DNA of 17,064 nt, from contig CBFGJN010000043.1 of assembly GCA_965649115.1 (NCBI GenBank), positions 1 through 17,064 on the forward strand. The letters are read 5' to 3'. The position numbers were made by a program, and so were the translations under genes. Each line of letters starts with the position of its first letter. Position 1 is the first letter of the stretch. Source of the DNA: a candidate division WOR-3 bacterium (GTDB taxonomy: Bacteria; Hydrothermota; Hydrothermia; LBFQ01; DSFT01). The notes below the pieces were generated by a model. That model was given only the letters and a program-made list of their open reading frames with translations. It did no database searches and was not told where the DNA came from. Below, piece by piece: positions 12,952 through 17,064 of this stretch.

Positions 12952-13768
12952 CTTCATAATATAATTTTTCTACAACTTTATATAGACTATCATTAGCACT
13001 AACAACTCCAAACCAACCATATTTTCTTAATTTACTAAAAACAACACTATCTTTTGGTAATTGTAGAAATGCAGATTTTAATTTTTCAACAATTTTTTCA
13101 TCTAAATAGGGTGAAACTACAAAACCATCGTTAGGTATAGGACCAATACTATCAATAACTCTTGTTTTCTCAAATATATCAGGATATTCATCTTTAAGTA
13201 AAATTCTACCATCAGAATAAATTGTTCCAAAATCAACTTCATTATTATAAACTGCTATAATAACATTCTCATGACTATTTAATTGAATTTTTTTAAAATC
13301 CTTTTGAGGGTCTAAACCAAGTTGCTTCATTCTTAAAATAGGAAATAAATAACCACTTGTTGATGCAATATCAGGAATACCCCATGTTTTACCCTTTAAA
13401 TCGTAAAGACTTTTATAAGGACTTTTTGAATTAACGATAAAATAAGTTTTATAGTAAATTGTTCCATCACTTCTTAATGAAGTTATAATAATTTTCGTTG
13501 AACATTTATGTTTTGAAATAACATATGGAAGTGCAGATAAGAAGCTTCCATGAACTTTACCTGAACATAATCCTTCAATTAAACCGCTGTAATCTGTTGC
13601 GATAAATGGTTTAACCTTCATATTTAATTTTTTTTCTAAATAAATTTGTAAGGGTTTTAAATCTTCTATAATTTTTTCACTTTCTGAACTTGGATAATAT
13701 CCTAAAACGAAAACCTTTTCTTTTTGACAAGATAGGATAAAGAAAACTAAAAAAATCATTTTTTTCAT
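12932..13768 (-). CDS. Phosphate/phosphite/phosphonate ABC transporter substrate-binding lipoprotein (PhnD/PtxB family)
   Basis: Lipoprotein signal MKKMIFLVFFILSC; TDYSGLIEGL, DLKGK, STSGYLFP, SHENVI.AV....VDFG and PIPND motifs. Confidence 0.85.
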   Translation of the reverse strand: MKKMIFLVFFILSCQKEKVFVLGYYPSSESEKIIEDLKPLQIYLEKKLNMKVKPFIATDYSGLIEGLCSGKVHGSFLSALPYVISKHKCSTKIIITSLRSDGTIYYKTYFIVNSKSPYKSLYDLKGKTWGIPDIASTSGYLFPILRMKQLGLDPQKDFKKIQLNSHENVIIAVYNNEVDFGTIYSDGRILLKDEYPDIFEKTRVIDSIGPIPNDGFVVSPYLDEKIVEKLKSAFLQLPKDSVVFSKLRKYGWFGVVSANDSLYKVVEKLYYEVILKKP

Positions 13769-15006
13769 TTTAATTTCAGAATTTTCTTTCCATTTGATAT
13801 GTAAATTCTAAAATTTTTTGAACAATTTGATATTGAACCATCTAAATTATAAAAATTTTTAAAATTTTTGATTTTTTCATTTTCAGAAACACTAACCTTA
13901 CAATAACTATTCTCATAAACTAAAAAATCTACTGATGAAATTGGATAATTAATAATTGAATAGTCATAATCATTTGAAAAAATTGAGATATTTTGAATTG
14001 GTTTAGTTGAGATATTATAAACACTTAAAGGTAAAATTGTATCTAAAAGACAACTTGAACCATCATCTAAATTAAAGTCAAAAATTGATAAGCTATCTTG
14101 ATTGTAAAATAAAATTGTGTTTTTGAAAATTTTGGGATTTTGTTCTAATGCTATATTCTTACTCCTTCTTGAAAATAATAAATTTCCAAGGGTATCTATG
14201 CTTATGAAAAATATATCGTTAAAATAATTTCCTGAAATAATGAACTTTCCATTAATAAATTCAACGCTTGAAACATACAGGTTTATATTATCAATTGTTT
14301 TATATACTTTGCTCCAAAAAACTTGATTTAAAGAAGTATCAAGTGAAGCTATAAAAATAAAGTACTTTTGGGAAATGTCAGTAAATTGTGAAAAAACATA
14401 AATTTTTTCATTTATTCTAAATAATTTTACTGGAAATGTTGAATTATATAATCCAAATGACTTTGATTTTAAAATGTTCCCATTTATATCAACTTTAATA
14501 ATTGCCAAATCTTGAAAATTGTATCTACAAAGAAGATAAAAGTCAATTGTTCCACTACAATAATCAACATTACTAAAAGACTTTGAAAAAATTATTTTTC
14601 CTAATTTATTTAATTTTATAATGATATTTCCACTTGTTAAATATAAGTTTCCAAAAACATCAGAAAAGAAAGTTTTATCAAAGGTTTCACTTGAATTGTA
14701 AGTTATTGAGGAAATTAAATTTCCATCACTATCAACTTTAACTATTGAAAAAAATGGATAACTTGAAAATAAAAAAATTGTATCGTTAATAATGATAGCA
14801 TCTGAAATACTTATGTTGTAAATTGCTTTTGACCAAATAGCAGTTCTATATTGATTTAATTTTATTATAAAAGCATTGCTTTGGACATTTCCAAAAATAT
14901 AATAACTATTTTGATAAACGATAAGTTTTATTCCAAGAGCATTGTTTGAAAAATATATTGTTTTAACAAAGCTAAATAGCGTTAAGGTAATAACCATTAT
15001 TTTCAA
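13765..15006 (-). CDS. Hypothetical secreted beta-propeller repeat protein with a degenerate T9SS-like C-terminal tail
   Basis: Six repeats of pattern IxKxDxxGNxx(W/F)SK; short hydrophobic N-terminus (likely ATG 14997); C-terminus VSVSE...FYNLDGS...IYISNGKKILKLK. Confidence 0.6.
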   Translation of the reverse strand: MKIMVITLTLFSFVKTIYFSNNALGIKLIVYQNSYYIFGNVQSNAFIIKLNQYRTAIWSKAIYNISISDAIIINDTIFLFSSYPFFSIVKVDSDGNLISSITYNSSETFDKTFFSDVFGNLYLTSGNIIIKLNKLGKIIFSKSFSNVDYCSGTIDFYLLCRYNFQDLAIIKVDINGNILKSKSFGLYNSTFPVKLFRINEKIYVFSQFTDISQKYFIFIASLDTSLNQVFWSKVYKTIDNINLYVSSVEFINGKFIISGNYFNDIFFISIDTLGNLLFSRRSKNIALEQNPKIFKNTILFYNQDSLSIFDFNLDDGSSCLLDTILPLSVYNISTKPIQNISIFSNDYDYSIINYPISSVDFLVYENSYCKVSVSENEKIKNFKNFYNLDGSISNCSKNFRIYISNGKKILKLK

Positions 15007-16747
15007 TTACTTTTTCTGCTATATCATTTACAAGTTTTGAATAATTTGGAAATTCGTACCATCTAACTAATTTCCTTAGTGTTGAAATAAACATTCTTTG
15101 TTCATCACCACTATAAAGCGATGATAGAACATTAATTGCTTTGTTTTCAATATCCCTAATTGCATGGTAAATATAAAACTCTAATAATTTTGCACAATCA
15201 TTTGCTCTTTTTTCATTACCCATATTTAATAACTTTAATGCCCTTAAATAGCCACTTTCCGCTAAAAATATATGCGAAACAATATCTGCTATACTTGAAG
15301 AAATAATTTGAGCATCTCTTATATTTTCACCATATTTTTGAACTGCTAATGCTGAAACCATTAAGAAAATTTTCTTAAATATATCAATTGCAAATTTTTC
15401 CCTTGATAAAAATCCATAGTTTGGCATTTCAGGAATATAACTAATTACTTCATTAGAAAATTTAAGAGCAATTGGAATTAATGGTAATTCACCTTTTAAA
15501 GCTTTTCTTAAAAGCATTCCCGTAATTACTTGTCTATTTATTTCATTTGTTCCTTCCCATATCCTATTTATTCTACTATCTCTATACGCCCTTGCAGCGG
15601 GATAGTCTTCAATATAACCATAACCTCCATAAGTTTGTAAAATTTCATCCACTGTAAAGTCTAAAACTTCTGAACCAAAAACTTTTATTATAGAATGTTC
15701 AATAGCATACTCTCCAATTCTTTCAATTGCTAAGGATGGTTCAATATCACTTGGTATAAATTTATCCATATATCCTGCTATTCTATAACTTGCACTTTCT
15801 CCAACATAAATATAACTGACAATTTTTGCAAATTTTTCTCTAATTAATTCAAATTCAGATATACTTTTACCAAATGCTGTTCTCTCCTTAGCATATTTTA
15901 CACCAAGGCTTAAAATATACTTTGATGAACCAATAGTACTTGCACCAAGTTTATACCTTCCTATATTTAAAATTCCAAAAGCTATTCTATGACCCTTTCC
16001 AATTTCATACAATTGATTTTCTTTTGGAATTCTTACATTATCAAAAAATAGTGGAACTGTTGAAGAACCAACCATTCCCATCTTATGATATTCATTACCA
16101 ATAGAAAATCCTTCTCTATTTCTTTCTACAATAAAAGCTGTTATTCCTTTATCTTCACCATTTATATAAGCTCTTGCAAAAACGATATAAAAATCAGCTA
16201 TTCCTCCATTTGTAATAAAAATTTTTTGTCCATTTATAACCCAATAATCTCCATCAAGAATAGCTTTTGTTTTTATATTCATAGCATCGGAACCACAACA
16301 AGGTTCAGTTAAGGCATAAGCTCCAATTAGTTCAGCTTTTGCAATTTTTGGTAGATATTTTTTCTTTTGCTCCTCATTTCCAAAATAAACAATAGGTAAT
16401 GAACCAATTCCAACTTGAACACCCCAAGTGATAGCAAATGAACTTTGAATTGAAAATTTCTCTGCTAATATCATAGAAGTTCTTTTATCTATTCCCATTC
16501 CTCCATACTTTTCTGATATTTCAGCACCTGTAAATCCATATTCAGATGATTTTTTAAGTAATTTTTTTAATAAATCTAAATTCTTTTTTTCAATTTCATT
16601 ATCATATGGAAGAACTTCTTTTTCCATAAAATCCTGAGCTGTTTTTGCTATAAGCTTATGTTCTTCGGTAAATTCTTCAGGAATAAAGGTTTCTTCAATC
16701 TTTCCATCTTCTACTAAAAATTGACCACCTTTTATAATTTCAGCCAT
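14972..16747 (-). CDS. Acyl-CoA dehydrogenase, long form (~590 aa, Bacillus FadE-like)
   Basis: KGGQFL N-terminus, AYALTEPCCGSDA, NGQKIFITNG, KMG...SST, ILNIGR, R.AFGK.I, GGYGYI and RINRIWEGTNEINR (catalytic Glu). ATG 16747 is preferred over TTG 16753. Confidence 0.93.
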   Translation of the reverse strand: MAEIIKGGQFLVEDGKIEETFIPEEFTEEHKLIAKTAQDFMEKEVLPYDNEIEKKNLDLLKKLLKKSSEYGFTGAEISEKYGGMGIDKRTSMILAEKFSIQSSFAITWGVQVGIGSLPIVYFGNEEQKKKYLPKIAKAELIGAYALTEPCCGSDAMNIKTKAILDGDYWVINGQKIFITNGGIADFYIVFARAYINGEDKGITAFIVERNREGFSIGNEYHKMGMVGSSTVPLFFDNVRIPKENQLYEIGKGHRIAFGILNIGRYKLGASTIGSSKYILSLGVKYAKERTAFGKSISEFELIREKFAKIVSYIYVGESASYRIAGYMDKFIPSDIEPSLAIERIGEYAIEHSIIKVFGSEVLDFTVDEILQTYGGYGYIEDYPAARAYRDSRINRIWEGTNEINRQVITGMLLRKALKGELPLIPIALKFSNEVISYIPEMPNYGFLSREKFAIDIFKKIFLMVSALAVQKYGENIRDAQIISSSIADIVSHIFLAESGYLRALKLLNMGNEKRANDCAKLLEFYIYHAIRDIENKAINVLSSLYSGDEQRMFISTLRKLVRWYEFPNYSKLVNDIAEKVIENNGYYLNAI

Positions 16748-16752
16748 AAGCA

Positions 16753-16762
16753 AATTTTAAAG
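16753..16762 (-). promoter_or_regulatory. Putative -10 region (CTTTAAAATT) giving a leaderless acyl-CoA dehydrogenase mRNA
   Basis: Minus strand GCTTTAAAATTTGCTTATG: TAAAAT lies 6 nt before the ATG, with no SD. Confidence 0.65.
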
Positions 16763-16766
16763 CTTA

Positions 16767-16912
16767 ACCCTGAAAATAATCCTTCCGCTTACAAAAACCC
16801 CAACTTTTGCCCTTGGAGGGGCATAGCTCCCCCCATTAAAGCAATAGTTCAAATAAGATTTTTAGTAAATTATTGATATTCAAGGAATTAACATTATTTA
16901 CTAGACAAAGCA
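16767..16912 (-). mobile_element. MITE-like element, copy 3 (diverged, right end missing)
   Basis: Minus strand from 16912 aligns ungapped to copy 1 from 136 at 39/48 identity. AACTATTGCTTTAATGGGGGGA matches 20/22, followed by decayed versions of both hairpins (GGGGAGCTATGCCCC, AAGCGGAAGGATT) and AGGGT. Confidence 0.75.
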
Positions 16913-16938
16913 AAAACTTTAATTATTTTTTTCATTAT

Positions 16939-16968
16939 GTTTCAATCCCTTATAGGGACGATAAAAAC
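16939..16968 (-). CRISPR. Solitary CRISPR repeat unit GTTTTTATCGTCCCTATAAGGGATTGAAAC (type I-B/III-like); no array
   Basis: 30 bp with GTTT start, ATTGAAAC 3' octamer (the typical Cas6-generated handle) and internal palindrome TCCCT-ATA-AGGGA. No second copy at the expected ~66-bp spacing on either side. Confidence 0.7.
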
Positions 16969-17030
16969 CCGTGCCTTGCCTTTTACCCCTTGACCACCTT
17001 ACGACGATGTATATAACAAGTCGTCCAGCA

Positions 17031-17064
17031 CCAAAATTTTAAAGCATAAGTTTTCAATTTTTCA
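17031..17064 (-). promoter_or_regulatory. Putative promoter firing towards the solitary CRISPR repeat
   Basis: TATGCTTTAAAATTTTGG (17048-17031) is an 18/18 match to the tRNA-Ala promoter region (4933-4916). A possible (T)TGAAA -35 with an 18-nt spacer is cut by the window edge. Confidence 0.6.

Follow-up and report, generated by a model that had tools for sequence, protein, structure and literature searches.

The 17,064-nucleotide stretch of DNA analysed here (the window) is the complete contig C43 of genome G000, a fragmented metagenome bin of 99 contigs and 1.85 Mb, and it most likely ends in an emptied or minimal CRISPR locus, that is, the canonical leader of the genome's main repeat family followed by one intact repeat, beside housekeeping genes. 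Judged from its sequence, we consider it probable, and well short of certain, that this is a spacer-less CRISPR locus which is still transcribed and cut by Cas6 and which could, in principle, acquire spacers. The initial annotation had favoured a dedicated, non-canonical crRNA with a spacer-like 5' segment, and had offered the leader and first repeat of a lost array as the alternative. The former proposal gives way, since the segment is the leader of the full arrays on contigs C4, C28, and C85; the latter fits the data.

The single repeat and its leader

The repeat is the sole match in the window at three or fewer mismatches, none of 200 shuffles gave one, and its Rfam CRISPR-DR2 score, 43.8 bits, exceeds the gathering score of 37; one intact 30-bp repeat on the minus strand, as annotated, is therefore what the window holds (Table 1). 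The annotation was also right that it has no neighbour. Within 600 nt downstream, not even a degenerate second repeat is present, the best match being 15 of 30 positions where the best matches in shuffles average 16.5, and upstream the best match is likewise 15 of 30 and at chance level. An array in the strict sense has at least two repeats with a spacer between them; with one repeat only, the unit is therefore filed here as a spacer-less locus and not as an array.

Table 1. Coordinates of the CRISPR unit, its surroundings and the other solitary units. Positions without a contig name refer to the window; all strands given are relative to it.
Feature	Position	Strand	Remarks
Promoter core TATGCTTTAAAATTTTGG	17031-17048	-	Putative function; -10 TAAAAT at 17036-17041
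Hairpin GACGA-CTTGTTATATACA-TCGTC	17003-17025	-	Predicted start (about 17029) lies a few nt before it
Purine-rich, repeat-proximal leader	16969-17002	-	Ends in GGCACGG (16969-16975); the same in C4 and C28; C85 has 1 mismatch
CRISPR repeat GTTTTTATCGTCCCTATAAGGGATTGAAAC	16939-16968	-	Intact, single copy
Expected Cas6 cut	16947/16946	-	Would leave the 8-nt tag ATTGAAAC, by analogy with known Cas6 products
A-rich flank ATAATGAAAAAAATAATTAAAG	16917-16938	-	Unique, 22 nt, directly after the repeat
Dispersed element, about 205 nt, inverted ends	16768-16920	-	Partial copy, between the repeat and the next gene
Promoter word GCTTTAAAATTT of the acyl-CoA dehydrogenase gene	16741-16763	-	6 nt before the ATG; kept in the G001-G004 orthologues
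Acyl-CoA dehydrogenase gene	14972-16747	-	ATG at 16747
Solitary unit	C71 3252-3281		Leader about 23 nt shorter; junction GGCTCAA
Solitary unit	C25 19361-19390		Right after cas1-cas2; leader about 41 nt shorter; repeat starts with T
Solitary unit	G002:C8 2134-2163		Same-genus (sister) genome; leader intact, repeat end changed to ATTTGAAC

It is important to settle the direction in which the repeat is read, as the Rfam match lies on the plus strand and our reading is on the minus strand. The promoter-bearing leader lies 5' of GTTTTT...ATTGAAAC in all three full arrays of this genome, the degenerate last repeat of the C28 array sits at the far end of that array, and the 3'-terminal ATTGAAAC is the usual origin of the 8-nt tag of crRNAs; for these reasons, we follow the minus strand. 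The strands of the Rfam CRISPR-DR families are not known to be curated for transcription direction.

Allowing up to six substitutions, the main repeat family has 22 copies on six contigs, and 19 of these lie in arrays with spacers of 36-39 nt, on C4 (four repeats), C28 (five) and C85 (10). The cognate arrays for which the initial annotation had proposed a search are thus present. The repeat in the window equals the consensus and is identical to 18 other copies in these arrays as well as to the solitary copy on C71. At the array ends, the last repeat of C28 is degenerate, and partial repeat copies follow the last repeats of C4 and C85. The repeat in the window is, unlike those terminal repeats, fully intact, so that a simple collapse onto a terminal repeat is not obviously its origin. 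The extra partial copy in the trailers reads GGGATTGAAAC; it stands directly after the last repeat in C4 (326-336) and 12 nt after it in C85 (about 845-855). Elsewhere, a search of genome_contigs for the exact repeat returned one match, at the end of a contig labelled “MAG: Candidatus Hydrothermia bacterium.”

The genome also has the Cas6 and the type I-B and type III genes that had been anticipated. Its two cas6 genes stand alone, amid housekeeping genes and distant from other cas genes: that at C11 7915-8649 has trmH-like and folD genes on its two sides, and that at C66 7416-8165 comes after rtcB. Type I-B cas1 is present twice, once within a row cas3-cas4-cas1, and the genome further has a cas7/DevR gene and cas10 genes of both the Csm1 and Cmr2 kinds (types III-A and III-B). 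A second repeat family, GTTTAAATTCCACTACGTTCAGATGAAAC, forms small arrays at C1:76770-76931, C32:1249-1477, and C35:2359-2526.

The comparison that bears most directly on the initial annotation is that of 16969-17064 with the leaders of full arrays, which the annotation itself had named beforehand as capable of telling against it. Over the 96 nt available, the identity is 96/96 to C4 and C28 and 95/96 to C85, the repeat side being the same, and all three contigs have an identical arrangement of promoter, hairpin, purine-rich stretch, and GGCACGG junction. Because of this identity (one base off in C85), we regard the GC-rich 5' segment as, by sequence, the canonical transcribed leader. Several elements of the original description stand. 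The segment has 50.8% GC (16969-17031) in a window of 27.6%, close to the 50% claimed. Similarly, the longest word common to the leader and the region upstream of tRNA-Ala is the 18-nt promoter core in Table 1, just as described; it also precedes two tRNA genes, the dnaK-like and groES-like starts, and all of the CRISPR leaders. The word CTTATGCTTTAAAATTTT occurs 12 times in the genome. Only the last five bases of the putative -35 box TTGAAA, which can be seen in the C28 copy, are present in the window (17060-17064); the first falls past the contig end, which is why the leader promoter escaped a simple sigma-70 scan.

The approximately 34-nt purine-rich stretch is present as described, and its comparison to a spacer is what does not hold: it belongs to the leader shared by the arrays. 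In addition, no repeat-like sequence that could give a 5' handle was found upstream of it, so that its excision as a spacer with such a handle is not possible. The stretch ends in GGCACGG, which stands directly before the repeat in all full leaders, and a GGCACGG or GGCACAG junction is kept before the first repeat in the leaders of genomes G001 and G002. By likeness to the junction requirements of Streptococcus thermophilus and Haloarcula hispanica, GGCACGG is the likeliest candidate for an integration signal.

Folding gave a mixed answer to the suggestion that the segment is structured. The hairpin GACGA/TCGTC is there and forms part of the minimum free energy (MFE) structure of leader plus repeat (91 nt, z -2.37); taken by itself, the 61-nt leader is no more stably folded than its shuffles (z -0.44). 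A closing stem, GTGCT/GGCAC, had also been proposed; it is missing from the 91-nt MFE structure, and only three of its pairs appear in that of the 61-nt leader. At the same columns as the hairpin, the G002 leader has GATAA/TTATC, with two pairs changed on both sides, and that of G001 has AACATC/GATGTT, offset by one base. A hairpin may thus be kept in three leader types from three lineages, a pattern that is suggestive only. RNAalifold on five leaders gave a weak consensus of -8.34 kcal/mol in which the hairpin was not recovered. The hairpin, whose stem differs between species on both of its sides, is a modest lead on leader function. The portions of the literature consulted offered nothing useful on leader-transcript structure or on CRISPR in this phylum.

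An anti-repeat role, in which the purine-rich leader would pair with the repeat, was also considered and rejected for G000, where 390 of 500 shuffles do equally well, and for G002, where 476 of 500 do. Pairing of the leader with the 5' half of the repeat is significant only in G001 (2 of 500). The G001 leaders (C14 about 1880-1925; C27) contain GGGGACGAAAAAA, a near reverse complement of that half, and the resulting duplex, which is absent in G000, has a predicted energy of -17.9 kcal/mol, matched by 2 of 500 shuffles.

The contig end and the assembly graph

Features at contig ends must be read against the assembly graph, and here only 96 nt lie between the repeat and the last base of the contig. 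The terminal 127 nt (96 nt of leader, the repeat, and 1 nt) equal C4:1-127 and C28:582-708, and differ from C85 at one position. Exact 127-nt overlaps account for 56 of the 112 oriented suffix-prefix overlaps of at least 40 nt in this assembly, 127 nt is also the length of 18 of its 34 shared contig starts, and 144 of 198 contig ends recur elsewhere. We take the dominance of this one length to be the signature of a de Bruijn assembler run at k=127, which means that 128-mers, each of them extending over leader, repeat, and flank, went into building the contig. In graph terms, C43 and C4 begin at a vertex through which C28 runs. The first 628 nt of C28 are 97% identical to the stretch after cas1-cas2 on C25, and its first bases are also reached by the ends of C59, C75 and, with one mismatch, C82. 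The simplest picture is one of several loci with a common long leader (about 580 nt), of which the assembler resolved only one path.

This k=127 assembly is the only evidence that joins leader, repeat, and flank. When the public contigs of four runs (assembled at k=31) are compared with 16500-17064, none bridges the junction at 16938/16939, and all break at the repeat. The run that covers the stretch best has no contig over 16852-16938; such a gap is not evidence either way. Of two metagenome scans, one looked for the repeat-flank junction and the other for a word of the leader, and both returned 0 matches, the records of the source sample possibly being outside the scan. The search for public runs containing the stretch gave 23, most of them labelled as hot-spring metagenomes and none of them an RNA run.

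Could the locus, then, be an artefact of assembly or of a mixed population, in which the true locus has an ordinary multi-spacer array, or the flank is part of the trailer of another array, and the contig follows a collapsed, minority, or chimeric path through the repeated leader and repeat? The unit stands exactly at the contig end, within a 127-nt overlap common to three contigs of a bin in 99 pieces; the C28 array has the repeat followed by ATAAT as well, at its fourth spacer, which opens with ATAATC; and the public contigs leave the junction unbridged. However, about 96 consecutive 128-mers would each need to contain leader, whole repeat, and flank, and from the way such assemblers behave, a 30-nt repeat should not be able to collapse a k=127 graph. 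All three arrays are, moreover, complete from leader to trailer, so that no orphan array fragment is left in the bin, and the solitary repeats of C25 and C71 are internal to their contigs; single-repeat loci therefore do exist in this genome. On balance, we judge an artefact of this kind to be unlikely and retain the spacer-less locus as the preferred reading.

Flank, neighbouring genes, and other solitary units

After the repeat, the sequence runs into the flank ATAATGAAAAAAATAATT and then toward the acyl-CoA dehydrogenase gene. The A-rich flank would form the 5' part of any RNA bearing the tag. A partial-target scan of the genome found 196 loose matches to it; shuffled versions averaged 108.5 and reached as many as 509, and the result is uninformative because the flank is A-rich. 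No terminator is predicted between the repeat and the gene, and read-through into the latter is therefore possible.

The copy of a dispersed element that lies in between matches (at about 145-298 of the query) many copies at 70-85% identity in G000 and G002. The full element, about 205 nt in length, has a G/C hairpin at its centre and the inverted ends TGCTTTGTCCAGTAATTATTG ... GAATTATTGGACAAGGCA, and is present in the window as one full copy (126-345) and as partial copies at 1-125 and 16768-16920. BLAST returned 546 HSPs for it in G000, 197 of at least 150 nt, and another genome of the genus has it too. The element is MITE-like in appearance and accounts for many of the contig breaks. As a further observation, the promoter word GCTTTAAAATTT has 186 copies in G000 (in the window at 16741-16763 and about 345-377), and its frequent position 6-9 nt before an ATG, as in the acyl-CoA dehydrogenase and dnaK-like genes, suggests that many mRNAs in this genome are leaderless or near-leaderless.

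The absence of cas genes from the window, as first annotated, was borne out by a Pfam scan of its 18 ORFs, which assigned housekeeping families to 17, no family to one, and a cas family to none. A weak match to Csm1 turned out to be the HD domain of RNase Y and was discarded. The 413-aa ORF at 13765-15006 (minus strand), between the genes for a phosphonate-binding protein and the acyl-CoA dehydrogenase, has no Pfam match at E<=1e-4.

This context bears on the possibility that the unit is an RNA anti-CRISPR, that is, a Racr-like solitary repeat unit on a mobile element. A solitary repeat directly downstream of a promoter is what has been described for viral solitary repeat units (in the parts consulted of PMC10651486), and the contig shows only 96 nt upstream of the repeat. 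All 17 annotated genes of the window are, however, housekeeping genes, with none from a phage or plasmid among them; the promoter and leader belong to the host arrays; and the exact repeat has 0 matches in viral_contigs. We therefore find this explanation scarcely credible.

The spacer-less locus in the window is not the only unit of its kind. The main repeat family has six leader-bearing loci in G000, three of which (C43, C71, and C25) have one repeat only, and the same-genus genome G002 adds a fourth solitary unit, on C8 (Table 1). Among the solitary units, the leader in the window is pristine. Compared by sequence, the four look like a decay series, and they have no flank sequence in common.

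At orthologous sites, the results were uniformly negative. The initial annotation had suggested checking conservation in related genomes: among seven relatives, none has the repeat (at up to seven substitutions) within about 1.5 kb of its acyl-CoA dehydrogenase orthologue. In four same-genus genomes, similarity starts at the promoter of this gene, and the gene upstream differs in each. The sequences on either side of the G002:C8 unit match G000:C50 at two positions that lie apart, and this contig has no repeat; nor does a repeat lie upstream of the G002 orthologue of the gene that follows the C25 unit. Thus, none of the three solitary units tested (C43, C25, and G002:C8) has a counterpart at the orthologous position in the sister genome or in relatives. 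Among genomes of the same genus, the repeat has 691 matches in G001 and, at three or fewer mismatches, 0 in G003 and G004. The picture that these sequences suggest is one of lineage-specific solitary units at different stages of decay, and not of a conserved RNA gene.

A dedicated crRNA-like regulator of the crlRNA, CreA, or CreR type, which would guide type I-B or III complexes or serve as a decoy for Cas6 or another Cas protein, has to be weighed against this picture. The strong promoter would, in that case, yield a single-repeat RNA in abundance, and either its tag-bearing 3' product would direct the complexes to a target in the host or the RNA would titrate Cas6. It would agree with a tRNA-type promoter before an intact repeat and with the presence of three solitary units in G000 and one in the sister genome, and single-repeat units that make crlRNAs are documented for type I-C (in the sections consulted of bioRxiv 10.1101/2024.12.27.630466). 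Against it, the 5' segment is the shared array leader; the flank is of low complexity and its loose matches, within the range of the shuffles given above, point to no specific target; the four units lack a common flank; the three that were tested are absent at orthologous sites; the unit in the window is not beside cas genes; and its paralogues are decaying. We consider a regulator decidedly improbable, and so return to the emptied or minimal locus.

A possible life cycle and comparison with known systems

How might such a locus arise and behave? All of its spacers may have been lost by recombination between repeats, or a leader-repeat unit may have been duplicated. Transcription would start near 17029, about 7 nt after the -10 box, and the RNA would run from the leader with its hairpin through the repeat into the flank. 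One or the other Cas6 protein would then cut at 16947/16946; this position and the start are those of the initial annotation, and both follow from the sequence. The products would be a leader fragment and a downstream RNA in which the tag ATTGAAAC is carried on the A-rich flank and, after it, the dispersed-element copy, a non-spacer sequence that would have no defined target. The DNA of the flank would itself be protected by the tag. Type III complexes can load such RNAs and trim them at the 3' end without a second repeat. Read-through from the leader promoter may, in addition, contribute to transcription of the acyl-CoA dehydrogenase gene.

With an intact repeat and an intact leader-repeat junction, the locus could in principle receive a first spacer from type I-B Cas1-Cas2(-Cas4), and it could be re-seeded in this way because a leader and one repeat suffice in types II-A, I-E, and I-B.

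A more far-reaching view is that the solitary, promoter-driven repeats of this lineage are functional single-repeat RNAs of the host, made from promoters of tRNA strength, and not debris. We think this very doubtful. If true, RNAs with a tag and a host flank would be loaded into type III or I-B complexes, or would buffer the supply of Cas6 and crRNA; the leader hairpin would set the stability of these RNAs; and the host would have a counterpart of Racr and crlRNA units outside any cas operon.

As we read it, the locus is of a known kind and matters little in itself. Its value lies in being a natural case of the state, leader plus one repeat, that is enough in laboratory work to start an array, and solitary units at different stages of decay could inform our understanding of how arrays are born and lost.

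Three known systems invite comparison. Like Racr units, as far as the consulted text of PMC10651486 describes them, the unit has a solitary, promoter-proximal repeat that matches the CRISPR subtype of the host. It differs in its chromosomal housekeeping context, in using the leader of the arrays themselves, and in that we found no viral copy.

Like the crlRNA, CreA, and CreR units, it has one repeat behind a promoter, and a cut of the Cas6 type would leave a 5' handle on the downstream sequence. In type I-C crlRNA units, the sections consulted of bioRxiv 10.1101/2024.12.27.630466 describe a spacer-like guide downstream of the repeat that matches a nearby promoter. From the portions of the literature consulted, the crlRNA, CreA, and CreR units have degenerate repeats, a PAM-flanked match to a promoter, and a 3' hairpin, and they are conserved beside cas or defence genes. 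In contrast, the unit in the window has a perfect repeat and lies outside any cas neighbourhood, and neither a specific target nor conservation was found for it.

The closest likeness is to engineered leader-repeat loci. In the parts consulted of PMC4330368 and PMC4872114, a leader with just one repeat is enough in cis for spacer acquisition in engineered S. thermophilus CRISPR1, Escherichia coli type I-E, and H. hispanica type I-B systems. The unit described here is composed in the same way: a conserved leader with a promoter is joined, at a junction that is conserved too, to a single repeat without any spacer. Unlike those constructs, it is natural; it belongs to a hot-spring bacterium that has not been cultivated, and its neighbours are housekeeping genes, with the cas genes far away.
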